A stretch of DNA of 64,000 bases. It comes from an uncultured Pseudomonadota bacterium. Lineage in GTDB: Bacteria > Oederibacteriota > Muellerivitia > Muellerivitales > Muellerivitaceae. Positions 38,656-55,817 of the stretch are shown one piece after another. The stretch covers positions 96,001 through 160,000 of the forward strand of contig CAWIIP010000001.1 of NCBI GenBank assembly GCA_963836235.1. Direction: 5' to 3'. Both the position numbers and the translations under genes were made by a program. Under the pieces are notes generated by a model. That model did no database searches and was not told the origin of the DNA. It worked only from the letters and a program-made list of their open reading frames with translations. Every line of letters begins with the position of its first letter. The first letter of the stretch is position 1.

Positions 38656-39951
38656 ATGATCATCGATGAAGTGACAATTACCGTTGAGGCGGGAACCGGG
38701 GGAAATGGTTGCCTTAGTTTTCGACGGGAAAAATATGTCCCGCGCGGCGGACCCGATGGGGGCAATGGCGGGAAAGGCGGGGATGTTTTTCTGGAAGCCC
38801 GGACGGATGTTAATACCCTCGTTGATTTTATCTATCGCCCCCTGTTCAAAGCGGACCACGGAGGGCACGGCAAGGGAAAGAACCAGCACGGAAAAGATAC
38901 TCCTGAAATCACCATCCGTGTTCCCGTGGGCACGTTAGTTTGGAATGAAAACCGGGAACTGGTTGTGGATATGAACGAAGATGGCATGAAATATTTAATC
39001 GCCAAAGGCGGGCGCGGGGGAAGGGGCAACACCACTTTCGCGACCTCGACCCAACAAGCCCCCAAGCTGGCCGAGAGAGGGGAGCCGGGAGAAGTCAAAA
39101 CCCTTCGCTTGGAACTTAAGTTATTGGCGGATGTCGGCATCGTCGGTTTTCCCAACGCCGGAAAATCAACCCTGCTTTCCAGGGTCACTCACGCGCACCC
39201 CAAAATCGCGGATTATCCTTTTACGACATTGGAGCCACAATTAGGAGTGGTGAAATTGTCGGAAGGCCGAAGTTTTGTTTTGGCGGATGTTCCGGGGCTT
39301 ATCGAGGGGGCCAGCCAGGGGAAAGGGCTTGGGATCCGCTTTTTACGTCATCTCGAAAGGACCAAGCTCCTATTACATTTGGTCGATCTATCGAATTTGC
39401 AAAGTTATTCTGAACTCAAAAAAGGCATCAAAACCATTCAAAAAGAATTGAAACAACATAGCCCGAAATTTTTAAAAATACCCCAGCTCATCGTTTTGAC
39501 GAAAATGGATTCGGCCGCTAATAAGGAATTTTCGAATTGGATTCAAAAATTTAAAATTGAAAAAATAAAAGTTATGGCGATTTCCGCGGTCACTGGCGCG
39601 GGATTAAATCCATTATTAGAGGAAACCTGGTCTTTGTTATCGGCCATCAAAAAAGAAATGGCTGAGAAAGATTCCGGTCCGGCAAAAACACTCTATCAAG
39701 CAAAGGTCAGGTTCCAGGTCAAGAAAGACGACAAGGCTTTTTATGTGACTGGAACCGAGATAAAAAAATGGGTGGCGATGACCAATTTCGAGAACCGGGA
39801 CGCCCTGGAACGGTTTCAAAAAATATTGCAAAGGATGGGCGTTGTCCAGGCCTTGAAGAAGCAGGGTGTTCGTGATGGGGCTACGGTTTTTTGCGATAGT
39901 CAGGAATTGATTTTTGGATCAGAGGAATTGAGCCCTTATGATGACCTTTGA
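38656..39951 (+). CDS. obgE: GTPase ObgE/CgtA with C-terminal OCT domain
   Basis: FRREKYVPRGGPDGGNGG, GFPNAGKST, YPFTT, DVPG, TKMD. Confidence 0.97.
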   Translation: MIIDEVTITVEAGTGGNGCLSFRREKYVPRGGPDGGNGGKGGDVFLEARTDVNTLVDFIYRPLFKADHGGHGKGKNQHGKDTPEITIRVPVGTLVWNENRELVVDMNEDGMKYLIAKGGRGGRGNTTFATSTQQAPKLAERGEPGEVKTLRLELKLLADVGIVGFPNAGKSTLLSRVTHAHPKIADYPFTTLEPQLGVVKLSEGRSFVLADVPGLIEGASQGKGLGIRFLRHLERTKLLLHLVDLSNLQSYSELKKGIKTIQKELKQHSPKFLKIPQLIVLTKMDSAANKEFSNWIQKFKIEKIKVMAISAVTGAGLNPLLEETWSLLSAIKKEMAEKDSGPAKTLYQAKVRFQVKKDDKAFYVTGTEIKKWVAMTNFENRDALERFQKILQRMGVVQALKKQGVRDGATVFCDSQELIFGSEELSPYDDL

Positions 39952-41074
39952 CCGTAAAAGTTACATCTCAAAATCCAAACGAGTGGTCATAAAAATCGGC
40001 AGTAGTTTGTTGACCGATTTGAAAAAAAGGGGAATTCGAACCAGGTTTTTGAACCATTTAGCCGCGCAGGTTGAACAGTTAAATAAATCCAAGATCCAAT
40101 GCGTGATCGTCACCTCGGGAGCCATTGCCGCCGGAATGTTTGAGTTGGGTTGGGGAAAAAGACCCAAGGAAATGGCTAAACTGCAGGCGTTAGCGGCGGT
40201 CGGCCAAAGTAGTTTAATGCACCAATATGAATTGGCTTTTAAACGGCGTGGCTTAAAAGTGGCCCAAATTCTTTTGACCAGTGATGATTTATCCCATCGC
40301 GACCGGTATTCAAACGCCCATAACACTTTTATGGAATTGATTTCCCACGGAATTATTCCCGTGGTGAACGAGAATGATTCTGTCGCCGTTGAGGAAATTA
40401 AGTTTGGCGATAACGATACCTTGGGTGTGCTGGTTACCCATTTGTGTGAATCCGATCTGCTTATTTTATTGACCGACACAGATGGATTTTTCAGCGAGGA
40501 CCCGCGTTTGAATCCCAAGGCGCAATTGATTTCGGAAGTCCTAAAACTTGATTCTAAAATGGAAAAAAACGCCAGCCGATCCGTATCCGTTGTTGGAACC
40601 GGCGGTATGCAAACAAAAATTAAAGCGGCAAAAAACATGATGAAGTCCGGCATTCCCATGGTGATCGCGAATGGCAATAAATCGTTTATTTTAAATAAAG
40701 TAATGAAATCCGAAAAAGTGGGGACATTCTTTATACCCTCTAATAAAAAAATGGCGAGCCGGAAACGTTGGCTTGCTTGGAGTGTGAAACCGAAGGGCTC
40801 TATCGTGGTCGATGAAGGCGCCCAAAACGCTTTGGTGAATAAGGATAAAAGTCTTCTGCCGACAGGAATAAAAGATATTCATGGAATTTGGGAAAAGGGA
40901 GAAGTGGTCAGTATTGTCACTTCTGACGGTGTTGAAATCGCGAAAGGGATCGCGAGTTACTCGTCGAAGGACGCGGTGTTGATTAAAGGGCTGAAAACTT
41001 CCGAGATCGAAAAGAAATTGGGCCGTTTCACCACCGAAGAAGTCGTCCATCGGGACAATATGGTTGTGGTTTAA
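39938..41074 (+). CDS. proB: Glutamate 5-kinase with PUA domain
   Basis: VVIKIGSS, TSGAIAAG, NENDSV, FGDND, GTGGMQTK, HRDNMV. Confidence 0.97.
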   Translation: MMTFDRKSYISKSKRVVIKIGSSLLTDLKKRGIRTRFLNHLAAQVEQLNKSKIQCVIVTSGAIAAGMFELGWGKRPKEMAKLQALAAVGQSSLMHQYELAFKRRGLKVAQILLTSDDLSHRDRYSNAHNTFMELISHGIIPVVNENDSVAVEEIKFGDNDTLGVLVTHLCESDLLILLTDTDGFFSEDPRLNPKAQLISEVLKLDSKMEKNASRSVSVVGTGGMQTKIKAAKNMMKSGIPMVIANGNKSFILNKVMKSEKVGTFFIPSNKKMASRKRWLAWSVKPKGSIVVDEGAQNALVNKDKSLLPTGIKDIHGIWEKGEVVSIVTSDGVEIAKGIASYSSKDAVLIKGLKTSEIEKKLGRFTTEEVVHRDNMVVV

Positions 41075-41223
41075 TTTGAGATATTGTTGGAATAGTCAGA
41101 CATGGAAACGAGCAAAGACGACTAAGGAATATGAGTTTTATTTAAGATTGAAAAACATTAAAATGAATTTGTCGTGCCGATTTTACTGTTAACATATTTG
41201 GATTTTGAGAAGCTCGGTGAGGC

Positions 41224-41796
41224 TTGAAAGTGCAAAAAAAGAACTACTACGAAATCTTCAAGTTATATCCACCCCTTGACTTAAACCAACTTCAAGACAC
41301 CTATAAACAACTGATTTTCGAGCATCATCCGGATAGGAACCCCACCCGTCAGGAATCCGCCATTGAAGAAACCATGGAAATTGTCGAGGCTTACAATATA
41401 TTGAGTGATCCGACAAAACGCGAAATTTACAATTTTCAGATTAGGAATGATATTCGAAAAGAAATAGGGGAACTATTTGGTTTTAAAAAAAGTCTCCTGA
41501 AAATGATGAAATCCAAGGAAGAAATCGAGGCGGAAGAAAACTTCAAGAAGGGAATCGCTTTTTTTGAGGACAAGGAAAACTGGAACCAAGCCCAGCATGA
41601 ATGGGTAAAATGCACAAAACTAATCCCGGGTTTCGTGAACGCTCATTATAATCTTGGTATTGTCTTTGGTTATCAGGGGAATTTTAAAGATTCGGTGGTT
41701 TGCTTTGAGCGGGCCATCAAATACAATCCTGGTGATTATGACGCGAAGAAAACGCTTAGCACGGCCATGGGATATGTCTACGGTAAAAAAGTTTAA
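41224..41796 (+). CDS. J-domain co-chaperone with C-terminal TPRs
   Basis: NYYEI...HHPDRNP...EAYNILSDP.KR..Y; AHYNLG TPR. Confidence 0.88.
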   Translation: MKVQKKNYYEIFKLYPPLDLNQLQDTYKQLIFEHHPDRNPTRQESAIEETMEIVEAYNILSDPTKREIYNFQIRNDIRKEIGELFGFKKSLLKMMKSKEEIEAEENFKKGIAFFEDKENWNQAQHEWVKCTKLIPGFVNAHYNLGIVFGYQGNFKDSVVCFERAIKYNPGDYDAKKTLSTAMGYVYGKKV

Positions 41797-41811
41797 GTCA
41801 CTGAGGAGATT

Positions 41812-43560
41812 ATGGCAGATAAGGCTTTAGCCGTCGGCATTGATTTAGGAACCACGAATTCCTGCGTCGCCTATTTGAACGGGGGCGAACCTCAAGTTCT
41901 TCCGAATTCAGATGGTTATCACACCACGCCTTCCGTGGTCGCTTTTACCTCGCAAAAAAATTGGCTGGTGGGCCTTGACGCCAAACATCAAGCCATCACG
42001 AATCCCAAAGGAACCGTCGCTTCCATTAAGCGTTTTATAGGCCGAAAGATCACGGATGAGGATGTGCAAAAGGATAAAAACCTTGTTCCGTATACTATCG
42101 AAGGTTCCGAAAACAGCGACATCCGGGTCCATTTGGATGATCAATTAAAATCCCCCGAAGAAATTTCCGCCATCATCCTGCAAAAAATAAAACAAGACGT
42201 GGAAACGCGGTTGGGAGAAAAAGTCACCAACGCCGTTATTACCGTTCCCGCGTACTTTAATGATTCGCAAAGGCAAGCGACAAAAGACGCTGGGAAAATA
42301 GCGGGATTTGAAGTATTGCGCATTATTAATGAGCCTACCGCGGCGGCGCTTTCTTATGATTTTGACACGAAAAAGAACCAGAAAATCGCCGTGTATGATC
42401 TCGGCGGCGGTACTTTGGATGTCACCGTTTTGGAGTTATTAAACGGCCTGTACCGGGTTTTGGCCACTTGCGGGGATACCCATCTCGGCGGTGATGATTT
42501 TGATCAAACCATCATGCAATGGGTGCTTGAAAAGTTTTCCTCCGAACATGGCGTGGACTTGCGGCAAGATCCGGTTGCCCTTCAACGATTACGCGAAGCG
42601 GCTGAAAAGGCAAAATGCGACTTGTCGGCAACGGCGAGTGTTGATATCAATTTGCCTTTCATCACTAAAAAAGAGGGGACACCCTTAAATCTATCCTATA
42701 CCTTAAGCCGAAGTGATTTTGAGGGGTTAGTTGCCCAATTGGTTGAAAGAACCCTTGAGCCTTGCAAGAAAGCCCTTCGGGACGCCAATTTAACTCCCAA
42801 TGACTTGAGCGACATTATTTTGGTTGGCGGCATGACCCGCATGCCGAAAGTCAGGGAAACCGTCAAACGGTTTTTCAATAAAGAACCCAACACCAAAGTG
42901 AACCCGGATGAATCGGTCGCGTTGGGCGCGTCGATTCAAGCGGGCATCATCAACGGCAATATTCGAAACGCTCTTTTGTTGGATGTCACCCCGCTTTCAC
43001 TGGGTGTGGAAACACTGGGAGGAACTTTCAGCGTTATTATTCCGAGGAACACAACGGTTCCGACCAAAATGAGCAAGTTGTATTCCACGGTTAAAGACAT
43101 GCAAACATCGGTCAACGTTAAAGTCCTTCAGGGTGAGTCCAAGGTGGCCAATAATAACAAGACTTTAGGTTTCTTTTCATTTATCGGGCTACCTCCCGCA
43201 CCCGCCGGGACGGTTCAAATTGAGGTAACTTTCGCGATTGATTCAAATGGGATTGTGAACGTCACGGCCAAAAATGTCGCGACAGGCCAAATGCAACAAA
43301 TGAAAGTTTCCGCCACCAGCGGTTTGACCAGGGATGAATTGGATAAACTGGTTCAAGTCGCCAAAGGCAGGGTTATTTCCGCAACTCCAAAGGAAGAAAT
43401 CCGTCCTAAAGAAGAGGAGCGGAAAAAGACCGCTTCGCCCATGCCGGCGAAAACATCCGCCGCCTCCGACACTCCTGCTGGAGAGGGCGACACCGAGTTT
43501 TTAACGGGCGACATGATCAATTCCTTCCTCAAAGAACCCGACGAGCCGATGGGCGAATGA
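41812..43560 (+). CDS. DnaK/Hsp70 paralog with truncated lid
   Basis: [52 protein letters not shown]; similarity ends soon after SGLT.DE. Confidence 0.92.
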
Positions 43561-44180
43561 AATCGATAGCTCTGTTCGGAGGATCCTTCAATCCGATTCA
43601 CTTTGGGCATTTAGCCATCGCGGAGGAAGTCCGAAATAAGCACAACATCGATAAGGTTATTTTTTTACCGACGAACCTTCCGCCTCACAAAGATCCCACC
43701 GATTTGGCCGACGCTAAAAAAAGATTAATCATGACCCACTTGGCGACCGTCAGCAATCCTTGCTTCGATACTTCCTCTTTTGAAATTGACCGGGGCGGGA
43801 AATCCTATTCCATTGACACGGTTAAATATTTTTACCAGCTTTTTAAGGGGAAAACCGAATTGTATTTTATTATTGGGGCCGACATGTTGTCGGAGATTTT
43901 GACCTGGAAGAGTATTGAGGAAATTTTAAAAATGTGCCGCTTTATCGCGGTTTCCCGTCCCGGCTATGACGTCCAAAAAATTTTCAACCGCCATTTTTTG
44001 ACCTCGGAAAATTATAATATCGCTTCCGGGCTGTTGGATAATATCATGATTGAGGAAATGCCCATGCTGGATATCAGCGCGACCGACATTCGCCGGAGGG
44101 TCGCGGAGTGGAAAAGCATTAAATACTTGGTCCCTGAATCCGTTGAGCAATTTATTCACAACCAACAACTTTATCTTTAA
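43557..44180 (+). CDS. nadD: Nicotinate-nucleotide adenylyltransferase
   Basis: GGSFNPIHFGH, PPHK, SYSIDT, IIGAD, ISATDIR. Confidence 0.96.
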   Translation: MKSIALFGGSFNPIHFGHLAIAEEVRNKHNIDKVIFLPTNLPPHKDPTDLADAKKRLIMTHLATVSNPCFDTSSFEIDRGGKSYSIDTVKYFYQLFKGKTELYFIIGADMLSEILTWKSIEEILKMCRFIAVSRPGYDVQKIFNRHFLTSENYNIASGLLDNIMIEEMPMLDISATDIRRRVAEWKSIKYLVPESVEQFIHNQQLYL

Positions 44181-44194
44181 GCGAAGAGGAACCG

Positions 44195-44461
44195 ATGCAA
44201 CTGGTTAATTATATGGAAGAAGCGGTGAAGCGGGTTTTCGAGGAACTCCTGAAAGAGCCGATCTATCAATCCGTTCCATTTGATGAAAAGACAAAATTGG
44301 ATATCATCGCCTTCACCCTCAACCATTTGCCGCCCCGGTATGTCGTGACTGAAAAGGGCCATCTTTATACGAGGGTTAATGAATTGCACCAGCAATTTAA
44401 AACGGATATTATCATTGAATTAACCACGGCCATAAACCAAGTTAAAGCAAATCCACGCTAG
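44195..44461 (+). CDS. ComFB family protein
   Basis: NYMEEAV...LDIIAFTLNHLPPRYVVT..G...V.ANPR. Confidence 0.88.
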   Translation: MQLVNYMEEAVKRVFEELLKEPIYQSVPFDEKTKLDIIAFTLNHLPPRYVVTEKGHLYTRVNELHQQFKTDIIIELTTAINQVKANPR

Positions 44462-44469
44462 GAATTTTA

Positions 44470-44802
44470 GTGAAAAATGTTTTCCCGGAAACCGTAAAAA
44501 ATATTATTAAAGCCCTTGAGGACAAGAAGGCGATTGATATTCAAGTATTGGATATTCGCGACATCGCCTCTTACACGGATTTCTTGGTGATTTGTACCGG
44601 GACATCCTCAACGCACGTGAACGCCCTGGTGGAGAATGTGGTGGACGAATTTTCAAAAGAAGACGGTCCGGTTTATATGAATCCCTCCAAAGACAACAGC
44701 TGGTGGATACTGGATTTTGTGGATACGGTCGTTCATGTCTTTAATGAGACCACAAGGCAGTATTACGATCTCGAGCGTTTGTGGCTGGACGCCAAAAAGT
44801 AA
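44470..44802 (+). CDS. rsfS: Ribosome silencing factor
   Basis: DKKAIDI.VLD, TDFLVICTG, WWILDF.D.VVHVF, YYDLERLW. Confidence 0.95.
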   Translation: MKNVFPETVKNIIKALEDKKAIDIQVLDIRDIASYTDFLVICTGTSSTHVNALVENVVDEFSKEDGPVYMNPSKDNSWWILDFVDTVVHVFNETTRQYYDLERLWLDAKK

Positions 44803-44962
44803 AAGTTTCCTACCGAGTCCCCGCCCCTTCTGGTAATCAAAAATTGTACAAAAGTTGACTGGTTAAACCCTTCACCTGGCTTTCCCTTCTGAAATTTCTG
44901 GAAATCCGAAAAAAATTCGCTAGGCTTTTTCCTAAAATTTGTTCACACCCAAGGAGAAAGCT

Positions 44963-46834
44963 ATGGATGAACGCTTGAAGGCCGTTGAGACGATCGTCGA
45001 AATCCCCATCGAACTGATCCGGGAAAACCCGGACAATCCAAGAGGGCCGGTATCCCTGGAGGACGGCCGTACCATGGCCGAATCCCTGGAGGCCGTGGGC
45101 CAGTGTAAGCCGGTCTTGGTACGGCCCCAAAGCGAAGCGGAGAAGGCGCAGTTTCCCCCCACTGAATACCTCATGCTGGGGGGCCACCGGCGGTTAGCCG
45201 GGGCCAAGCTGGCAGGGTGGAAGACCCTGAAGGCCACCATCGTGACCCCCAAGACCCCCCACGAGGAGTTGCTGGAGGTGGTCCTGGATAACCGCCATAA
45301 GCCTATAGGCTGGTGGAAGGAGGACCTGGCCATTGAAAGGTTCTTGAAACCGACCAACGGGGACGGTCAAAGGAAGCTGGCCGCGGAATTGGACATTTCT
45401 CCCTCGAACGTGAACAAAGCTTGGAAGCTCACTCAGGCCCTAAACCCCGTCTCCCGGGGTCTGGTAACCCAGAACCTGGCTTCTCAACCCCCTGACGAGA
45501 CCGAAAGTGTTTCCTCAGGAAACACTAAAAGTAAGGTTATTCCCATTACCCGAAGTATCCTGCTGGTTTTGGCCGATCTGAGGGACCCCCAGGAGGTCGA
45601 AAAGGCTCTTCGCCGGGTGCTGGACGACCAGATGAACGAGCCCCAGGCGCGGCAGCTGGTAGCGGGACTCAAAGGGGGAACGGACCCGGCAGCCCAACCC
45701 AAAAAGGCTCACAGGGCGGTAGTTGCTGGGGATTCAGTAAAGGCACCTGCTATGGCACAAGCTGGAAGCTCGTCGTATGCCAATTCCCATTCGGAATTGG
45801 CACAACCAAGGCAAGGGCCTCAGCCTGTGGCTTCAGCCCAGGTGCCAACGAATCCGGCGGGTACGGCAACCGGCCTTAAGGGCTGGCTGGGCGATCTGTT
45901 GCCCCAACACCAGCAAGCCAAGAGCCTGGTGGTAGGTGGGATGGCCGGTTGGGTGGGGGGCTTTCTGGCCGCCAACTTCAAACGGGCCATGGGCACCATC
46001 ACCCGCCGTTGGATGCTTCACGGTATGTTGGGTTTGGGGGTGGCGGGCTTTTTGGTGACCCATGGTTTTAGTTCTCGTTCCAAGCCCGCTCCGCAATCCG
46101 GTCCTCAAGCCGGGGGGCAAGCGCAAGTTGTGCCAAGCCAAAGCGCCGTGGGTAGCCAAGGCACCCTAATGGGCTCGGTGGTTAATGTTCCGCCCGAATG
46201 GCAGGGAAGGGTTGTGTCGGGCCAAAACCTGGCCACGCAACTGGCCATGGATTTTTACGGGTTCGGTTATTACGACAATACCACCTGGCTTAATTCGATG
46301 AATGGCGACTTGTCCAGCGCTTATTCCCCCGTCTTTTTCCAGACCTTTTTCCCTCCATCCAAAATGGAAGCCATCCAGAATTTGAAGCTGAAGGGGTTTT
46401 TCAATTTCAACCAACCCATCCAGCTTTTGGCCATCGACGCGCAAAACGAAACCTTTTGGGTGGGGGGCGGGGCGAAGATCAAAAGTGACCATTCGCAAGT
46501 GGACCAGCTAGTAGCCCAGGGCGACGTGGCCTTGGAAGTCCATTTGGCCCAAACGCCCGGAGGAAAAAACCAGGTCGTTTTGGTGAAGGAATTGACGGCT
46601 TTACCCTTCGACTTTGCCCAGGGCGGGCCCAACCAAAGCTCGTCCCACGACTCGAAGGCCGGAGGGCAGGTGGGGGATGGGGCAAAAGCCGCTCAGAAAA
46701 CGCAAAAGGTGGCGTCTTCGGAAACAAGTTCTTCAAAAGTCCCTTCGGCCCCGGCCTCCCAAAAGACGGACCCTGCGGCAAAGTTCGTGGGGGATGCGGC
46801 CGGTGAAGCGGCCAAGAAGTTCTTGGGGTTTTAA
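44963..46834 (+). CDS. ParB/Srx N-terminal CTPase plus HTH protein with predicted membrane segments and a C-terminal extracytoplasmic domain
   Basis: AGGAG RBS; IPIELI..NPDNPR, GQCKPVLVRP, GGHRRL arginine patch; QRKLAAELDISPSNVNK HTH; hydrophobic WMLHGMLGLGVAGFLV. Confidence 0.8.
   Translation: MDERLKAVETIVEIPIELIRENPDNPRGPVSLEDGRTMAESLEAVGQCKPVLVRPQSEAEKAQFPPTEYLMLGGHRRLAGAKLAGWKTLKATIVTPKTPHEELLEVVLDNRHKPIGWWKEDLAIERFLKPTNGDGQRKLAAELDISPSNVNKAWKLTQALNPVSRGLVTQNLASQPPDETESVSSGNTKSKVIPITRSILLVLADLRDPQEVEKALRRVLDDQMNEPQARQLVAGLKGGTDPAAQPKKAHRAVVAGDSVKAPAMAQAGSSSYANSHSELAQPRQGPQPVASAQVPTNPAGTATGLKGWLGDLLPQHQQAKSLVVGGMAGWVGGFLAANFKRAMGTITRRWMLHGMLGLGVAGFLVTHGFSSRSKPAPQSGPQAGGQAQVVPSQSAVGSQGTLMGSVVNVPPEWQGRVVSGQNLATQLAMDFYGFGYYDNTTWLNSMNGDLSSAYSPVFFQTFFPPSKMEAIQNLKLKGFFNFNQPIQLLAIDAQNETFWVGGGAKIKSDHSQVDQLVAQGDVALEVHLAQTPGGKNQVVLVKELTALPFDFAQGGPNQSSSHDSKAGGQVGDGAKAAQKTQKVASSETSSSKVPSAPASQKTDPAAKFVGDAAGEAAKKFLGF
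45506..45526. promoter_or_regulatory. Perfect palindrome, candidate parS/NBS-like site inside the parB-like gene
   Basis: AGTGTTTCCT-C-AGGAAACACT; function is inferred. Confidence 0.6.
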
Positions 46835-46845
46835 ATCATTCAAAA

Positions 46846-47010
46846 GCCTAAAATGGCCAGGCGTAAAGCGGTGAAATGGCCAAAGCTTTAGGCATCCCCG
46901 TGCGAAGCATAAGCCGGCTTCCGCAAAACCGGATGGATGAAGGCCAGGTGGTCAGTTCGGGTGAGGGAAGGTGGACTATTTATCGGCTCAAAGAGCAGGC
47001 GAACGGCGGG
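46846..47010 (+). pseudogene. Degraded winged-helix fragment resembling the C-terminal HTH of Fic-type proteins
   Basis: A*NGQA*SGEMAKALGIPVRSISR...DEGQVVSSGEGRWTIYRL with in-frame stops upstream of the ATG. Confidence 0.5.
46942..47010 (+). repeat. Imperfect direct repeat, copy 1 (69 bp)
   Basis: 56/69 identical to 47689-47757 by manual alignment. Confidence 0.85.
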
Positions 47011-47120
47011 GGTGCGAGCCAGAAGCCTCAAGCGCGAGCGACGAGAGAAAATGAATTTGTTTCCAGGGGTGTTGAAAGCCTAATAATATTGGGGAACGCG
47101 AGTGGAAAAAGAGGAAGGTT

Positions 47121-47687
47121 ATGAGCGAGATTGTTTCGCAAGGTTATGTTGAGCAAAAAATATATTTCCTTCGGGGCAAGAAGATAATGCTTTCCCATGA
47201 TTTGGCGGAGCTTTATGGAGTGACGACTTTTAACCTGAATAAGGCCGTCAAACGCAATCACGAACGTTTCCCTCGGGATTTCATGTTCCAATTGACACGG
47301 AAAGAAGCCGAAAACTTGAAATTCCAATTTGGAATTTCAAACTTGAAGTCACAATCTGTGACTTCAAGTTGGGGCGGAGCTAGGCGGGCCGCGCCTTACG
47401 CCTTCACGGAGCAAGGCGTGGCCATGCTTTCCAGTGTTTTGAGGAGCAAGAAAGCCATCCGGGTGAACATTGAGATTATGCGGGCTTTCGCCCGGTTAAG
47501 GGAAATTTTGGCGGTCAATAAGGATTTCGCGCGAAGGCTTGAGGAATTGGAAAGGAAGTTCAACGCCCATGACCATCAATTCCAGGCGGTATTTGACGCC
47601 ATAAAGGAACTGATGAAGTTGCCGGAAAAGCAGAAAAGGCGTATTGGATTTCTTGAAGAACCCAGGGCGGAGTATCGAGTGCATTAA
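47121..47687 (+). CDS. ORF6N domain DNA-binding protein (phage antirepressor-like)
   Basis: IYFLRGKKIML.HDLAELYGV....LNKAVKRN.ERFP.DFMFQLT, PYAFTEQGVAMLSSVLRS, RRIGF. Confidence 0.93.
   Translation: MSEIVSQGYVEQKIYFLRGKKIMLSHDLAELYGVTTFNLNKAVKRNHERFPRDFMFQLTRKEAENLKFQFGISNLKSQSVTSSWGGARRAAPYAFTEQGVAMLSSVLRSKKAIRVNIEIMRAFARLREILAVNKDFARRLEELERKFNAHDHQFQAVFDAIKELMKLPEKQKRRIGFLEEPRAEYRVH
47313..47370. repeat. Two tandem 27-bp palindromic units inside the ORF6N gene
   Basis: AACTTGAAATTCCAATTTGGAATTTCA and AACTTGAAGTCACAATCTGTGACTTCA. Confidence 0.85.
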
Positions 47688-47688
47688 T

Positions 47689-47757
47689 GGCCAGGTGGTC
47701 AGTGAGGGCAAGGGAAGGTGGACTATATACCGGATTAAAGAAGAGGCGGACGGTAGG
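47689..47757 (+). repeat. Imperfect direct repeat, copy 2 (encodes GQVVSEGKGRWTIYRIKEEADGR)
   Basis: Matches 46942-47010; starts 2 nt after the ORF6N stop. Confidence 0.85.
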
Positions 47758-48342
47758 GGATAGTATTAGAATCTGAATACTTTTAAGAGGGCTTGGTGTG
47801 AAATGGAAAATGGAGGCCAGGCACCTTTTTCTGAGTTATGACCGTTAGTGAACTCTGTCCTAAAAGTTATCAGTTAAGCATCATTTCGTCCTAAAAATGG
47901 TCAAGTTCTCCCAGTTCTTATCTTGCTATAAGAGGATAAAAGGCAGAATTCTTCATTGATTTCCTTTAATTTTGAGAACCGGTAAAATTGGCCTTTAATT
48001 TGCTTTAATTGGGGAATGGGTATATATTACACAGCAGGAAATATAAGGTTAACTGTTTTACCTACGTATCTGCAAGTACTTCCTGGTAAAGCCAAATATT
48101 CAAGTGACCTTACCCCCAAAACTGGTCCACCCTTTTATCGGCCACATAACTGCCCTACTTGGCCAATTGCAAATCTTTACTTCAACCCGATCAACTATCG
48201 TGGGATAGGTATATGCCCACAACAATAATGGGCTTTCTGAAAGGGCATTTTTCAACTTTTATGGGCCCAGGACGATTCCTGGCACATTTCACTGGAACTG
48301 AGCTGGAAAATTTTAGATGAATTTTAACTTTGGAAAAAATCA

Positions 48343-51300
48343 TTGATTAACAATCTTGAGAAAATTATTTTCTTTTACCGGCTCTTTTCGAGACGCTGGA
48401 TACCGGCGTTTGCGCTGTTGATCATTTTTGGATGGGGTAGCCAGGCCCATTCGCAGGTCAGCGCCACTTGGAGGGTTGCCTGTAACGGGACGGCCCACAC
48501 CGATTGCCTGGGAAATGTTTGGGCGGCGGATGAAAACTTCCTTAACGGCAGTCTTTACAACACGGCTTCGGCGATTACGGGAGCCCTGCCTTGTGGGACC
48601 GACCAGGTGCTTTACCAGAAAGAGAGATATGGTAATGGCGCTGTTGCTGTTACCTATGTTTTCGATGTGCCGGCTGGAACCTATCAAGTTACCTTAAAGT
48701 TCGCGGAAATTTATTTTACGGCGGCGGGTGACAGAGTATTTAACGTTTCGATCGCTGGAACACAAGTTTTAACCAACTTTGATATCTTTGCCGCGGCAGG
48801 CGGTGAAAACATTGCCATCGACGAAGTGTTCAGCAATATCGCTCCTTCCGGCGGAGCGATTACCATTCTTCTGGGCCCCGCGAGCGTGAACAACGGTAAG
48901 TGTGACGCTATTCAGATTGTTGCCCAACCGACCAATACCCCCACGGCTACGGCAACGAATACCGCTACGAAAACCCCGACCAGCACCATTACTGAAACGC
49001 CGACTAAAACCGCCACAAATACAGCCACCAACACCGCGACGGCCACAGCAACGAATACCCCCACCAATACGACGACGAACACAACCACGAATACTACGAC
49101 CAATACCGCCACGAACACAGCCACCAAGACCGCGACGGCTACAACCACGAACACAGGCACCAACACCGCGACGGCTACCGCCACAAATACTCCGACTGCC
49201 ACCACGACGAATACGCCGACCAAAACGACCACCAACACACCGACCAATACAGCCACGAATACCGGGACTAGCACTGCCACGAGCACCACAACCAACACAC
49301 CGACCAATACGGCCACGAACACAGCCACCAATACCGCAACGGCCACCACTACAAATACGCCGACTAATACAGCTACAAATACCGCGACTAACACCGCTAC
49401 GAACACGCCAACTAAAACGACCACCAACACACCGACCAATACGGCCACGAACACAGCCACCAATACTGCAACGGCCACCACTACAAATACGCCGACTAAT
49501 ACAGCTACGAATACCGGGACTAACACGGCAACTAATACAGCTACAAATACCGCGACTAACACCGCTACGAACACGCAAACTAAAACGACCACCAACACGC
49601 CGACCAATACAGCCACAAACACAGCCACCAACACCGCAACGGCCACTACTACGAATACGCCAACCAAAACGACTACGAACACACCGACTAATACAGCGAC
49701 GAATACCGCGACTAACACGGCCACCAATACAGCTACAAACACCACAACGAACACACCGACTAACACGGCCACCAACACCGCGACGGCCACCACAACGAAT
49801 ACTCCGACTAATACAGCCACGAATACCGCGACCAACACGGCCACCAATACAGCTACGAACACTACAACGAACACGCCGACCAATACGGCCACAAACACAG
49901 CCACTAATACTGCGACGTCCACAACAACGAATACTCCGACCAACACGACGACCGCTACCCCGACGAACACGACCACCGACACGCCAACGAATACCACGAC
50001 GAATACGCCGACAAACACGAATACCGCGACCAACACGACCACGAACACCCCGACTAACACCACGACAGACACGCCAACCAATACGACAACTGACACGCCA
50101 ACGAACACCACCACGAACACGACGACCAACACACCAACCAATACGACGACCGCTACCCCGACGAACACGACCACCGATACGCCAACGAAGACCGCTACCA
50201 ACACGACCACGAATACCCCGACTAACACCACGACGGACACGCCAACCAATACGACGACGGCTACACCGACTAATACGGCGACGGCCACCACAACGAATAC
50301 ACCGACTAACACCACGACAGACACGCCAACCAACACGACGACCGCTACCCCGACAAACACGACGACCGACACACCGACGAATACGCCGACAAACACGAAT
50401 ACCGCGACCAACACGACCACTAACACCCTGACTAACACCACGACGGACACGCCAACCAATACGACGACTGACACTCCGACGAATACAACGACAGCTACAC
50501 CGACTAATACGGCGACCAACACGACCACTAATACACCGACCAACACCACGACGGACACGCCAACCAATACGACGACCGCCACCCCGACTAGCACCACGAC
50601 AGACACACCAACCAATACGACGACTGACACTCCGACGAATACAACGACGGCTACACCGACTAATACCGCGACGGCCACCACAACGAATACACCGACTAAC
50701 ACCACGACAGACACGCCAACCAATACGACGACTGACACTCCGACGAATACAACGACAGCTACACCGACTAATACGGCGACCAACACAACCACTAATACAC
50801 CGACTAACACCACGACAGACACGCCAACGAATACCACTACGAACACCACCACTAATACGCCAACAAATACACCCACTAACACGACCACTAATACGCCGAC
50901 TAATACCACGACGGACACGCCAACCAACACGACGACCGCTACCCCGACGAACACGACCACCGACACACCAACGAACACCACCACGAATACGCCGACCAAT
51001 ACGAACACGGCGACCAACACGACCACAAACACCCCGACTAACACCACGACGGACACGCCGACCAATACGACAACCGACACTCCGACGAATACGACGACAG
51101 CTACACCGACTAATACGGCGACTAACACGACCACGAATACCCCGACTAACACCACGACGGACACGCCAACCAACACGACGACTGACACTCCGACGAATAC
51201 AACGACGGCTACACCGACTAATACGGCGACCAACACGACCACGAACACCCCGACTAACACCACGACGGACACGCCAACCAACACGACGACTAATACTCCG

Positions 51301-52890
51301 ACGAATACAACGACAGCTACACCGACTAATACCGCGACCAACACGACCACAAATACACAGACCAACACCACGACGGACACGCCAACCAATACGACGACCG
51401 CTACCCCGACGAACACAACCACGAATACGCCAACCAATACCACGACGAATACGCCGACAAACACGAATACCGCGACCAACACGACAACTGACACTCCAAC
51501 GAATACGACTACTGCTACACCGACCAATACGCCGACAGATACAGCGACGAATACAGCCACCAACACCACTACCGCCACCCCGACGGATACCGCGACCAAC
51601 ACAGCTACCAATACGACTACGGCCACATCGACCAACACAACGACAGATACACCGACGAATACGGCCACCAACACCGCGACGAATACAGAGACCAACACCC
51701 CAACTAACACCATGACGAACACACCAACCAATACGATTACCGACACGCCGACAAATACCACCACGAATACGCCAACGAATAGCCCGACCAACACGACCAC
51801 ATACACCCCGACGAATTCCACAACGAGCACACCAACCAATACGACTACGGAAACTCCGACGAACACCACCACGGATACGCCAACCAACACGATCACCAAC
51901 ACTCCGACTAACACTCCGACGAACACGCCAACGAACACACCGACTAATACGGCCACGAACACAGCCACCAGCACCATAACGGATACTCCGACAACCACGC
52001 CAACGGCCACACCCTCAAATACGGGAACCCTAACGCCAACAAGTACAGCGACTAATACCATCACCAACACTGCTTCCAACACGCAAACAAATACGCCTAC
52101 ATCAACCGCCACTACTACGAACACGACCACACCGACAGGAACCTCTACTTACACGTTGACCAACTCGCCCACAATGACTTCCAGCAACACCCCTACCGCA
52201 ACCTTCAGCAGTACCATTACCAACACACCGACTTTAACCGCCACGGCAACCATAACCTCGACGCCGAACCCGGCCATTACACCCACTTGCGGCCAGCAAT
52301 TAATTACGATTTATGATGAAAGGGGAGAAAAGGTTGCTTCTCTCTGTGGATCGGCGGTTTTCCCCAATGGAACCAACTTCTCCATGACGCTTTCTAATTT
52401 TGTCCCCAATCCCAATGGCCCCGGTGGAACCATCTCGATTGATTTGAATGGGCAGGTAATCGCTACTTGGAATGTGACGGACACGGCGGGTAATTTGGTG
52501 CCTACCGGCTTTTACCAATTCGTGGTGGTGGAAACGACGAATGATGGAACCATTACCCAATTGGAGCGGGACGCCTTTATCCCCACCAACCATGGGGAAG
52601 AGGTCTCGTTGCTGGTGTTGCCCAACATTGGGCACCCGGGGGATATCCTCAAATTCATCGCTTCTTTCGCTGGAATACCCGCGGATAATCAAAGTAAAAT
52701 AAAGCTATACACGGTGGAAGGCGAACTGGTTAAGACTTTAGCAATATCCTCCGGGACCGCCTCTTGGGACTTGAAGAACGGAAACGGCTTTACCGTCGCG
52801 TCGGGGATTTATATCGCGGTTCTTGACGGAATTGATCCAGCCAGCGGACAAAAGCTTTCGCAAATTAAAAAACTATTAGTCGCTCATTGA
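48343..52890 (+). CDS. Large secreted surface protein: malectin domain, about 1100-aa Thr-rich stalk, C-terminal FlgD-Ig/T9SS-CTD-like domains
   Basis: Signal peptide; [38 protein letters not shown] (malectin); TNTx repeats; [14 protein letters not shown]...[17 protein letters not shown]. Confidence 0.9.
48928..52290 (+). repeat. Coding low-complexity repeat with 12-nt period (T-N/D/A-T-P/A/T)
   Basis: Continuous ACN-AAY-ACN-NCN units with shuffled synonymous codons. Confidence 0.95.
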
Positions 52891-52905
52891 AAGGAGTGAC
52901 GGGAT

Positions 52906-54354
52906 TTGTTTAACCCGTTATCTATGACTGATTTATTTCGACGCCGGATCAAAACCACCTGTTTTTTCATAATGGTTGCGGCCTTTTTTCAATTTCCGAT
53001 TCCCCGAGCGGATGCCTTGTTTGACCGGGGTGGCGGCATTGGCGTTGGCGCTAGGGCAATGGGACTGAGTGGGGCTTTTGTCGCCGTCGCGGACGACTCA
53101 AGCGCGGCCTATTGGAATCCAGCGGGCCTTGGTCAGTTGAATCAACCCGAATTGGAAGGAATGTACGGTTCCTATTTCAACAATTCGGAGACGAATTTAT
53201 TTTTTTCATTCCATTATCCGCTGCCGGACGACATTCATCTGGCGATTAGCGCCAACGATTTATTTTATACCGATATTTCCGGGTCCGACGAAGAACAGTA
53301 CACAGGTTCAGTCGCTATCCCGCTTGATTTTGTTCCCGATAAACGGTTTTTGTTAGGGGCTAATTTTAGATATCTCGTTTCTAATTTGGGAAGCGGATAT
53401 GGAACCGCCCAAGGCGTGGGAGTGGATTTGGGTTTGCTCTATCGGCAACCTTTCAAGGACGCCTCAGAATTCAAAGCCGGACTTGTTTTGACTGATATCT
53501 CCACTTCCATCAAGTTCGGGGATACCGGCGTAGAACAAACAATTCCGGCTCTATTGACAGCGGGGTTAGCTTATCAATTTGACCCTTATACCCTGATAGC
53601 CGCCGATGTTCCCTGGACCTTATCGAATGATATTTTATTGGGCAATCAGGATGTGCGGATTCGAAGCGGTTTAGAGCATTGGTTTTTTGACGGGAAAGTG
53701 GGATTAAGAGCCGGGTTTGTCAGCTTTGTAACGCTTCCTGGAGAATTTAGCGTGGGCGCTAGTTATAAAACCACGGATTGGTCTTTGGATTACGCTTTCA
53801 TGAATCATTCGGACGCCCTTGGCAATAGTCATCGCATCGACATGAATTATTATTTCAACGCGGGAACCGGAAAACCCGAACCTCGGCCTTACCTGGAGAA
53901 GTCCCTTGTGGGCGACCAAAAAATATATTTGAAATGGGATATACCGGCTGGAAGCGAAGCGGATGGTTACTTGGTTTATGTTAAGAGTGATACGGATATG
54001 GATTTTCATCGGGCGAAACAGGAGCTTTTGCAAACAAAATACTGCCTCCTGCGGGGAGCTCAAAATGGTTTGCGCTACCATGTTTATATTCGGTCCGTGG
54101 TGGGGGGCCAAGAAAAGTATTCTTGCAGTGAATTGGTGATCATCCCGCAACCCATGTCGGAAGAGGCAAAGAAATATTACGACCAGGGGATGGAAGCCTT
54201 TGACAAAAACAACCTTTCGGCGGCCCTCTATGCCGCCCGCAAAGCGGAAGAACTCGATCCCAATAACTATGATATTAAGGATCTCATTCAAAAATTAGAA
54301 ACCACCCATCATGAAGGTCTGGTTCCTGAAGATGAACCACCGTTGACTCCGTAA
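52906..54354 (+). CDS. PorV/PorQ-family barrel fused to an FN3-like domain and a TPR
   Basis: GVGARAMGLSGAFVAVADDSSAAYWNPAGL; GLEHWF; VGDQKIYLKW...DGYLVY...NGLRYHVY.RSV (FN3); KAEELDPNN. Confidence 0.8.
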   Translation: MFNPLSMTDLFRRRIKTTCFFIMVAAFFQFPIPRADALFDRGGGIGVGARAMGLSGAFVAVADDSSAAYWNPAGLGQLNQPELEGMYGSYFNNSETNLFFSFHYPLPDDIHLAISANDLFYTDISGSDEEQYTGSVAIPLDFVPDKRFLLGANFRYLVSNLGSGYGTAQGVGVDLGLLYRQPFKDASEFKAGLVLTDISTSIKFGDTGVEQTIPALLTAGLAYQFDPYTLIAADVPWTLSNDILLGNQDVRIRSGLEHWFFDGKVGLRAGFVSFVTLPGEFSVGASYKTTDWSLDYAFMNHSDALGNSHRIDMNYYFNAGTGKPEPRPYLEKSLVGDQKIYLKWDIPAGSEADGYLVYVKSDTDMDFHRAKQELLQTKYCLLRGAQNGLRYHVYIRSVVGGQEKYSCSELVIIPQPMSEEAKKYYDQGMEAFDKNNLSAALYAARKAEELDPNNYDIKDLIQKLETTHHEGLVPEDEPPLTP

Positions 54355-54386
54355 TCCTCCCGGTTCGAGACCACCGCATTCACGGC

Positions 54387-54415
54387 TTGTTTTAGGCGCT
54401 TACTTCCCCTAGAAT
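54387..54415 (+). promoter_or_regulatory. Candidate sigma70 promoter upstream of purA
   Basis: TTGTTT-17-TAGAAT. Confidence 0.5.
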
Positions 54416-54440
54416 GCCTCGTCGAAGCGAAGATTCATGA

Positions 54441-55817
<1,377 letters not shown>

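Follow-up and report, generated by a model that had tools for sequence, protein, structure and literature searches.

A ParB-like protein with a predicted membrane anchor and a VirB8/DotI-like domain, with palindromes inside the genes of its family: a candidate DNA-to-envelope tether from an uncultured bacterium

To our knowledge, ParB-fold proteins are known to reach the membrane only peripherally, as Noc does, or via partners such as PopZ. For Noc, peripheral membrane binding via an N-terminal amphipathic helix under the control of CTP is described (PMC8429893), and DNA-membrane tethers are also described in RicO of Staphylococcus aureus, which bridges DNA and membrane as a peripheral protein (10.64898/2026.03.06.710092), and in RocS of Streptococcus pneumoniae (PMC7022226). 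Here we describe a gene, called the ParB-TM gene in the following (TM, transmembrane), which lies in a 64,000-nucleotide stretch of DNA from an uncultured bacterium (GenBank assembly GCA_963836235.1, contig CAWIIP010000001.1, positions 96,001 to 160,000); this whole stretch is called the window. The gene encodes a ParB/Noc-like module, a predicted membrane segment and a VirB8/DotI-like domain in one chain, and it carries a perfect palindrome within its coding sequence. The reading that we prefer, to which we assign about an even chance of being right, is that the product is a membrane-anchored ParB-like protein which binds this parS-like palindrome and tethers the locus to the envelope. The features of the gene are, in window coordinates:

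44963..46834, plus strand: whole gene, 623 aa, with ParB/Noc-like module, linker, membrane segment, VirB8/DotI-like domain and tail (open reading frame and translation)
44990..45241, plus strand: ParB N-terminal (CTPase-fold) domain, residues 10-93 (PF02195; alignments to structures 6t1f, 1vz0, 7bnk and 7o0n)
45356..45481, plus strand: helix-turn-helix (HTH) DNA-binding region, residues ~132-173 (parB_part match to residue 158; model helices 136-143, 147-159 and 162-173)
45506..45526, no strand: perfect 21-bp palindrome AGTGTTTCCTCAGGAAACACT, that is AGTGTTTCCT-C-AGGAAACACT, with 10-nt arms and a 1-nt centre; candidate parS-like site
45530..45682, plus strand: family-specific helical segment, residues ~190-240 (ITRSILLVLADLRDPQEVEKALRRVLDDQMNEPQARQLV), the most conserved block of the alignments A1 and A3
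45683..45922, plus strand: Ala/Pro/Gln-rich linker, residues 241-320, predicted to be cytoplasmic (translation; unconserved in A1)
45923..45979, plus strand: hydrophobic segment 1, residues 321-339, Gly-rich
46013..46069, plus strand: hydrophobic segment 2, residues 351-369, candidate single TM helix
46175..46624, plus strand: VirB8/DotI-like NTF2 domain, residues ~405-554, predicted to be extracytoplasmic (AlphaFold2, Foldseek and VIA-align)
46625..46831, plus strand: low-complexity tail ending ...KFVGDAAGEAAKKFLGF, with a conserved family motif

An earlier note on this DNA had proposed the open reading frame (ORF) and its overall architecture, a cytoplasmic ParB-type module followed by a membrane part and a C-terminal domain, and both hold. 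ORF call and translation confirm a gene that starts with ATG at 44963, with AAGGAG 8 nt 5' of it, and stops at 46834; an alternative start codon, TTG, lies at 44939. Among 5.8 billion protein clusters searched, seven relatives of 424-710 aa were found in other assemblies (28-56% identity over the best local alignment), so that full-length homologs do exist. All of them have the N-terminal module and a hydrophobic segment in common with the protein, and all but the shortest (P0003, 424 aa) the C-domain as well. An assembly or frameshift artefact is ruled out by the intact ORF and by these relatives from independent assemblies. The gene is more GC-rich than 10 kb of its flanks (0.583 vs 0.479), as had been noticed, but the value is not extreme genome-wide, 14% of the genome's ORFs of at least 300 aa having a GC content of at least 0.575. 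An island of foreign GC content was ruled out, as the GC content is only moderately high and the paralogs lie likewise at 0.535-0.603. Five listed public sequencing runs each contained at most 0.09 of the sampled words and none of them was RNA; they have no bearing on expression or habitat.

The N-terminal part matches Pfam ParB_N (PF02195) at residues 10-93 (E 7e-8, 32.8 bits vs a cut-off of 26.3), and the NCBIfam profile parB_part extends over residues 10-158, HTH included, with 58.2 bits vs a cut-off of 58.45. The sequence MDERLKAVETIVEIP at the N-terminus leads straight into the ParB_N domain. The module carries the box I-like motif NPDNPR, the box II-like motif GGHRR, in which both arginines of GxxRR are retained, and the box III-like motif LDNR in place of ENLQR at residues 108-111, just past ParB_N. 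A 31-row alignment served to build an AlphaFold2 (AF2) model of residues 1-261; its mean predicted local distance difference test score (pLDDT) is 88.9, and in this model residues 1-240 have the fold of a ParB/Noc-type N-domain plus HTH domain. The top PDB match in Foldseek is Noc (7nfu; target-normalised TM-score 0.68-0.69), followed by ParB of Myxococcus, Caulobacter and Thermus and then KorB, over 224-240 alignment columns. Pfam, parB_part and the model thus bear out what had been read by eye, a ParB N-domain with GGHRR, an HTH and a helical region. By profile the protein is not a Noc (nucleoid_noc, TIGR04285: 34 bits vs a cut-off of 315). The Pfam scan of the protein gave ParB_N alone and did not find the dimerisation domain ParB_C (PF23552), a domain that the same type of scan does match in the canonical ParB of the same genome.

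The label CTPase, which the earlier note had applied, is not secured. In the alignment with Myxococcus ParB, the wild-type GERR and the GARR of the E93A chain stand at the position of H75 of the ParB-TM protein, and Q52, which lies 41 residues before E93, aligns with N25 (the identities of the Q52A and E93A mutants were taken from PDB titles). We presume that Q52 and E93 of the Myxococcus protein have a role in hydrolysis; because N25 and H75 stand in their places, CTPase activity is uncertain. Binding of a nucleotide by the module is plausible from its sequence.

Hydropathy was expressed as KD19, the mean Kyte-Doolittle hydropathy over 19 residues. Two hydrophobic segments had been reported for the protein, and both are present (KD19 1.36 and 1.35), but they are weaker than the single segment of the relatives and only the second one likely spans the membrane. 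Six of seven relatives have one strong hydrophobic segment with a KD19 of 2.15-2.49 that aligns with residues 351-369, and the paralog P0038 of the same genome reaches 2.94. Segment 1 aligns with a non-hydrophobic FPRFxRxF of the relatives and probably lies at the interface or next to the membrane instead of crossing it. Segment 2 is preceded by KRAMGTITRR, with four Lys/Arg residues before and two after it. From hydropathy and the relatives, a single TM helix with the N-terminus inside and the C-terminus outside is the most consistent reading and a likely one.

The C-domain was modelled by AF2 with the last 229 residues and a 44-row alignment. The pLDDT exceeds 90 over residues ~405-554, and the four helices and the five-stranded sheet of the model agree with the alpha-then-beta pattern noticed before. 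In Foldseek the top matches are IcmL-like 5cnl (E 2e-6) and DotI 3wz4 (target-normalised TM-score 0.71-0.75), within a top set of IcmL-like, DotI, TraM, TcpC, CagV and TrwG/VirB8 structures (E 2e-6 to 1e-3). VIA-align against 48,161 PDB representatives also ranked DotI 3wz4 first (Z 15.5, root mean square deviation 2.5 A, 129/137 residues), and its ranks 1-11 are all VirB8/DotI/TraM/IcmL-type domains of type IV secretion systems (T4SS), with Z 15.5 to 11.6; the top ten have Z >=12.3 and generic NTF2 proteins Z <=11.6, ranks 11-13 being tied. In the model, residues 405-554 therefore fold as a VirB8/DotI-type NTF2 domain, and the by-eye guess of a VirB8/TraE NTF2-like fold proved right. The solved DotI and TraM structures are periplasmic domains according to their PDB titles. 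VirB8-type proteins have a single N-terminal TM segment ahead of this domain, the same order as here. Sequence identity to the structural matches is 6-12%. No Pfam family matches the last 229 aa at E <=1, and among 44 family members one (P0020) matches PF11393, T4BSS_DotI_IcmL, at E 1e-5 with 25.5 bits, below the cut-off of 27.7. A DotI family profile search of the own genome was uninformative, its controls going undetected, and the prediction of a two-copy C-domain complex scored 0.00, which gives no verdict either way. Weaker fold matches are of the ARC6/PARC6 type (5gtb with Z 9.7 in VIA-align; 5had and 6jzf in Foldseek). Protein-atlas features serve as leads only, the best at 0.83 and all below 0.9, with a cluster of the ARC6-like intermembrane-space domain at 0.81.

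The linker and the low-complexity tail that had been described are both visible in the translation. The C-terminal family motif is ...AAKKxLGF, and in 5/8 sequences of A1 the tail ends in K-x-LLGF. In a scan of 15,832 ORFs of the own genome the tail motif occurs in five proteins, all of the ParB-TM family; six other ORFs fitting a loose tail pattern are unrelated or spurious. A role as general sorting signal was ruled out, since within this genome family members alone carry the tail. Its hydrophobic moment is 0.42, about the 90th percentile.

The palindrome at 45506-45526 had gone unseen in the earlier note. It encodes SVSSGNT in a disordered loop that separates the HTH from the conserved ITESILL helix. 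This loop is the only one modelled with low confidence in the N-terminal part (pLDDT <50 at residues 180-184), and its length varies among relatives. A scan of 23 family genes found a perfect palindrome with arms of 8-12 nt at about amino acids 174-241 in 12 of them, whereas shuffled sequences contain 0.05-0.45 palindromes per whole gene. All 12 loci from reference genomes have a palindrome at gene nucleotides 510-600, and four of them (L005, L006, L010 and L012) hold two or three copies. Combined, 23/34 distinct family loci carry a palindrome with arms >=8 in the post-HTH loop, one locus being common to both scans. When the loops were anchored by tblastn (94-214 nt), the palindrome lay inside in 11/11 loci, the short anchors of the other 24 loci being unmatched or unpaired, a limit of the method. 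The background in the coding DNA of the own genome is 0.023 such palindromes per 240 nt, and in the corresponding 500 nt only 6/56 ParB-like loci of other phyla contain one. The own genome (3.97 Mb, 99.4% complete) holds 68 odd palindromes with arms >=9, and seven of them fall within the 0.46% of the DNA that the paralog genes occupy.

Every paralog's palindrome differs and is confined to its own gene, except that of the ParB-TM gene, which has one other exact copy in the genome (C2:2047127). Two paralogs hold three copies each, 42 bp apart. Position and reading frame (SV...D/N-T) are kept across divergent paralogs, and differences between related genes are symmetric and compensated (GTGTTGCGC/GTGTTACGC, ...TTCCGA/...TTCGGA and TTGCCCCGA/TTGCCCAGA). 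An outer GTGT...ACAC is common to many family palindromes, and one palindrome consists of A+T only (ATTTATAAAACTTTTATAAAT). Complementarity runs up to a 1-nt centre, as it does in dyad sites that dimers bind, and this centre, the A+T-only example and the fixed reading frame point to dyad sites on double-stranded DNA rather than to RNA hairpins. We infer that the palindromes are paralog-specific, putative parS-like sites within the genes. The outer TGTTTC/GAAACA of the palindrome at 45506-45526 equals that of the Bacillus subtilis parS consensus TGTTNCACGTGAAACA as given in Table 1 of PMC7022226. The canonical parS pattern TGTTNCACGTGNAACA has no match in the own genome, despite a canonical parA-parB pair at C5:295180. 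Sites of the form TGTTTCC-N3-GGAAACA occur three times only in this genome, at C1:141508, C2:404891 and C2:2047128.

The earlier note had called the gene an orphan, which is misleading. Besides the canonical pair, whose ParB has ParB_N, HTH_ParB and ParB_C, the genome contains about ten further ParB-like genes. The family members in it fall into the following types:

TM, C-domain and tail: n=2 (the ParB-TM gene and P0038)
TM and tail, without C-domain: n=2
TM and tail, without C-domain, split into two ORFs: n=1
coiled coil and amphipathic C-terminus (+5), near-identical pair: n=2
related genes of 559 and 580 aa: n=2
two N-terminal TM segments: n=1
stand-alone C-domain protein: n=1

The near-identical TM-less pair lies at C2:814165-815625 and C4:488571-489992, and these are the two paralogs with three in-gene palindromes each at 42 bp spacing. 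The split member (C4:607479-609103) consists of a 96-aa ParB N-terminal ORF and a 445-aa ORF with the family tail, adjoins a DDE transposase gene and is likely a frameshifted or interrupted copy. Outside this genome, the C-terminal 283 residues matched 42 proteins at E <=1e-3, 17 of them at E <=1e-10, among 1.84 billion representatives, and ParB_N was found at E <=1e-3 in 12/40 scanned relatives of the C-domain. The reference genomes contain 12 clear relatives, all in metagenome-assembled genomes (MAGs), six labelled candidate division FCPU426 and six proteobacterial, five of the latter from one MAG. Among 99 genomes of the phylum the C-domain occurs in seven, all of the own family-level clade and with up to ten matches per genome, and the helical segment in 17, namely 15/30 of the own clade, one elsewhere and the own genome; G054, a genome of the same genus (80% complete), showed neither. 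By these searches the family is multi-copy, patchy and almost confined to one family-level clade of candidate phylum FCPU426. PADLOC gave no match for the ParB-TM protein or for 5/6 paralogs; a weak MTase_II match of one paralog (E 0.0026) was disregarded.

If the ParB-TM protein is a tether, it would be a bitopic inner-membrane protein with the N-terminal module in the cytoplasm, one TM helix, and the C-domain and tail outside. A dimer would bind the in-gene palindrome and its exact copy at C2:2047127 and hold this DNA at the membrane. The TM helix, the periplasmic part or juxtamembrane helices would replace ParB_C as dimerisation element or second clamp closure, and given a nucleotide-driven N-gate that still works, the linker could serve as an 80-residue leash on which clamps spread outward from the site. 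The outside domain and the tail might anchor the complex to a partner in the envelope or sense such a partner. A more far-reaching version is tentative and in our view rather doubtful: a one-gene DNA-to-envelope tether, in which an integral-membrane clamp closed via the membrane and a VirB8-like domain carries its own in-gene loading site, in which proteins and sites, having diverged jointly into orthogonal pairs, pin several chosen loci, possibly with a link via periplasmic domain and tail to the wall or outer membrane, and which works wherever the cassette lands.

Several points weigh against a membrane-anchored ParB-like protein acting from an in-gene site. The two weak segments (KD19 1.35-1.36) could form a two-helix hairpin, with the C-domain then on the cytoplasmic side. 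With N25 and H75, the protein may not run through a CTP cycle like that of ParB. Paralogs without a TM segment carry a tail-like motif, KD..SA(V/I)NTV, too, and because they share it, a purely periplasmic role of the tail is hard to reconcile. In favour, two of the TM-less paralogs have a C-terminal +5 amphipathic helix with a hydrophobic moment at about the 99th percentile, and membrane association as the common theme of the family would fit these helices. In the first scan, 11/23 genes were without a perfect palindrome at the expected place. The palindrome could instead serve the canonical ParB: a search of the genome gave no canonical parS, so that this ParB might use such sites, but that the other paralogs have palindromes private to them argues against this as a general explanation. 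Finally, the second copy at C2:2047127 could be a terminator or a repeat, or else a true second target array. It lies 550 bp upstream of a Y1_Tnp gene (IS200-like, RAYT-type) in the locus C2:2047024-2048630, is extended to 13-nt arms followed by T's, and has an odd palindrome, GAGTTTCGC-C-GCGAAACTC, at 43 bp distance; the intergenic stretch before this gene contains a 44-bp perfect palindrome, copies resembling repetitive extragenic palindromic (REP) elements and two odd palindromes 43 bp apart.

A structured repeat also lies within the ParB-TM gene itself, and a further feature surrounds the gene:

45782..45844, plus strand: in-frame 64-nt double-hairpin (REP-like) repeat, encoding NSHSELAQPRQGPQPVASAQV (nhmmer)
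44805..48044, no strand: 3.2-kb insertion relative to the same-genus genome G054, holding the ParB-TM gene, an 82-aa ORF and an ORF6N gene

The repeat has at least 24 copies in the genome (nhmmer), with compensatory changes and UUCG-like loops in hairpin 1. Eight copies lie in one and the same frame inside the linkers of ParB-like or C-domain paralogs, other copies are intergenic, and copies flank a Y1_Tnp gene. From its sequence it looks like a REP-type element tolerated inside coding linkers, and it explains in part the GC-rich, low-complexity character of the linker.

The insertion had likewise escaped the earlier note, as had the multi-copy family, and the interpretation given there is on the whole partly supported. 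Homology to G054 stops at 44804 and restarts at 48045, and no direct repeats or element ends were identified at the borders. Across five relatives the backbone is obg, proB, nadD, rsfS, a variable part and purA. DnaJ-TPR and Hsp70 genes ahead of nadD and a ComFB gene behind it are present in the same 4/5 of them, a PorV-like gene was detected before purA in 3/5, and G046 has obg-proB-nadD-rsfS-purA only. In the window, the upstream ORFs are obg, proB, a DnaJ-TPR gene, Hsp70, nadD, ComFB and rsfS, and the downstream ORFs are an 82-aa ORF, the ORF6N gene, a gene for a 1515-aa Malectin repeat protein, a PorV-like gene and purA. Among 14 ORFs scanned from 38656 to 55817 there is no parA, rep or integrase, in agreement with what had been stated before. 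No parA stands beside the nine non-canonical paralog or C-domain loci scanned either, the sole one adjoining the canonical parB at C5:295180. When 326 ORFs from 18 loci were clustered all against all, no conserved partner gene emerged, and a tblastn search with 13 window proteins against the loci of 37 relatives found the rsfS/nadD/ORF6N set near no homolog.

Some observations on the surrounding genes stand apart from these questions. The DnaJ-TPR and Hsp70 genes (41224-43560) lie between proB and nadD, a pair that is found in 4/5 relatives and is missing in G046. The 82-aa ORF (46876-47124) ends with a stop that overlaps the start of the ORF6N/Rha-like gene (47121-47687, plus strand), both within the insertion, and PADLOC matches the ORF6N/Rha-like product to PDC-S05, a candidate defence family (E 9e-56). 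The 1515-aa protein (48343-52890, plus strand) has an N-terminal Malectin domain and long internal repeats, and the strand composition of its gene is extreme (GC skew ~-0.45, AT skew ~+0.7). The PorV-like gene (52906-54354) follows it, and a 1713-aa ORF takes the same place in the same-genus genome.

Among the rival explanations, the one that survives best is still unlikely in our judgement. It regards the protein as a membrane regulator similar to ToxR, whose periplasmic domain senses a signal or partner while the ParB/HTH part controls its own or neighbouring transcription, so that tethering would be incidental; in a variant, regulated proteolysis might free the DNA-binding part. Regulators of the ToxR/CadC type consist of a cytoplasmic DNA-binding domain, one TM segment and a periplasmic domain, and by analogy the layout predicted here would be the same. 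A site restricted to the own gene would suit autoregulation, but it lies 540 nt into the coding region rather than at a promoter, and no promoter-like excess is seen. Several paralogs adjoin large surface-protein genes (DUF11, FlgD_ig, Malectin and S8), yet an adjacent ORF of at least 700 aa is found in just 3/10 paralogs of the own genome, a figure that stands without a control count, and no neighbour is common to the 18 loci. ParB-fold regulators are on record with VirB, KorB and BisD, which a survey of ParB-fold fusions describes (10.1101/2025.10.10.680097).

A somewhat smaller likelihood is given to a mobile-element cassette, either a one-gene partition or maintenance module, whose single ORF would hold both a centromere and its membrane-anchored binding protein, or a conjugation relic in which a VirB8-like protein was fused to ParB, now scattered over the chromosome. 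The multiple copies and the patchy spread (C-domain in 7/99 and helical segment in 17/99 genomes) speak for it, as do the strain-specific 3.2-kb insertion with its neighbouring PDC-S05-matching ORF6N gene, insertion sequence transposases near several paralogs, and the position of some matches within ~2 kb of a contig start. No element ends were recognised at the insertion borders, however, and no integrase, relaxase or rep gene lies near the ParB-TM gene or the ten scanned paralogs of the own genome. Also in its favour, the best fold matches of the C-domain are all T4SS parts. The earlier note had seen a hint of DNA transfer or segregation in the VirB8/TraE-like pattern of this domain. The hint of transfer is without backing, since the 99.4%-complete genome has no match for VirB4 (PF03135) or TrbI/VirB10 (PF03743), no T4SS gene was found near any of the ten own-genome paralogs, and no neighbour is conserved across the 18 loci. 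Two TraG/TraD/VirD4-like coupling-protein genes do exist in the genome (C5:268992-270788 and C2:1182296-1184089), but no paralog is within 20 kb of them, and they belong to a 4.7-kb module of their own, which is present in two copies at 79% identity. The survey of ParB-fold fusions ties orphan ParBs to mobile elements (10.1101/2025.10.10.680097).

It is improbable, finally, that the palindromes are not sites of this protein but mRNA hairpins, recombination or repeat elements or sites of the canonical ParB, and the protein a membrane-anchored DNA binder that is unspecific or otherwise targeted: the in-frame REP-like double hairpin demonstrates that structured repeats do enter these linkers, the second copy lies in a REP-rich region within a terminator-like hairpin, and the canonical ParB lacks a recognisable parS, but each palindrome is private to one gene while REP elements are multi-copy, position and frame are conserved across divergent paralogs, an RNA loop has no need of a 1-nt centre, and neither the A+T-only example nor the tandem copies at 42 bp spacing suit this explanation.

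If the protein does anchor its palindrome to the membrane, it would be a membrane-spanning ParB with a folded extracytoplasmic domain that links a particular DNA site physically, through the inner membrane, to the envelope. The set of paralogs with private in-gene palindromes would moreover be a natural system for the evolution of ParB-site specificity, and the family would be useful for asking whether a CTP-type clamp works without a C-terminal dimer domain and how selection at the DNA level shapes a protein loop. It belongs to an uncultured soil and peat phylum for which no cell biology is on record.

The literature searched contained no description of a transmembrane ParB, a ParB-VirB8 fusion or a ParB-TM family. 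The survey of ParB-fold fusions is built on Pfam-A domains, and in its main text, supplements aside, the words transmembrane, VirB8, NTF2 and periplasm are absent (10.1101/2025.10.10.680097). A preprint on a membrane-bound nuclease was rejected as a precedent, ParB being there merely an imaging tool.

Compared with canonical ParB/Spo0J and parS, the ParB-TM protein shares the ParB_N and HTH folds, the NPxxPR, GxxRR and (E/D)N motifs and the outer TGTTTC half-site, and one parS of B. subtilis likewise lies within a gene, spo0J. It differs in that it has no adjacent parA and no ParB_C, in that N and H stand where the nucleotide pocket of ParB has Q and E, in its odd-length and paralog-private candidate site, and in that a canonical parAB is present separately in the same genome; by its lack of ParB_C and ParA it does not belong to the canonical ParABS systems. 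KorB of plasmid RK2, a CTP-dependent clamp with ParB fold that acts outside segregation, is a structural match (8qa9, target-normalised TM-score 0.60), and its operator is an odd-length palindrome. KorB is soluble and plasmid-encoded, however, acts with KorA and has a dimerisation domain. With ARC6/PARC6 of plastid division the protein shares, in its predicted layout, a domain on the cytoplasmic side, one TM segment and an NTF2-like domain, which in ARC6/PARC6 lies in the intermembrane space and holds the C-terminal tail of an outer-membrane partner; a DNA-binding module is lacking there, so that the resemblance is one of layout only. RicO and RocS resemble it in having an N-terminal DNA-binding domain, sequence-specific or HTH, together with a membrane-binding element. 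In contrast to the ParB-TM protein, the accounts of them cited above describe peripheral binding via C-terminal amphipathic helices, without ParB fold and without extracytoplasmic domain. In the VirB8, DotI, TraM and IcmL proteins of T4SS an NTF2-like periplasmic domain comes after a TM helix, the order that is predicted here too, but the short cytoplasmic N-terminal tail of VirB8 contrasts with the 320-residue ParB module here, and in the absence of a Pfam match in the C-domain, at 6-12% identity and with neither VirB4 nor VirB10 found in the genome, the protein is not a VirB8 of a T4SS by sequence or by apparatus. Noc of Bacillus and Geobacillus combines a ParB N-domain and HTH with palindromic sites, brings DNA to the membrane and has no ParA partner, and in structure residues 1-240 match it best (7nfu, target-normalised TM-score 0.68-0.69). 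The ParB-TM protein is nevertheless no member of the Noc family, as Noc is peripheral and keeps the ParB C-terminal domain, whereas the protein described here is apparently integral, has an extracytoplasmic domain and is without ParB_C. Noc, together with the unrelated tethers RicO and RocS, comes closest to the ParB-TM protein in its proposed function, and VirB8/DotI comes closest in the structure of the part predicted to lie outside.

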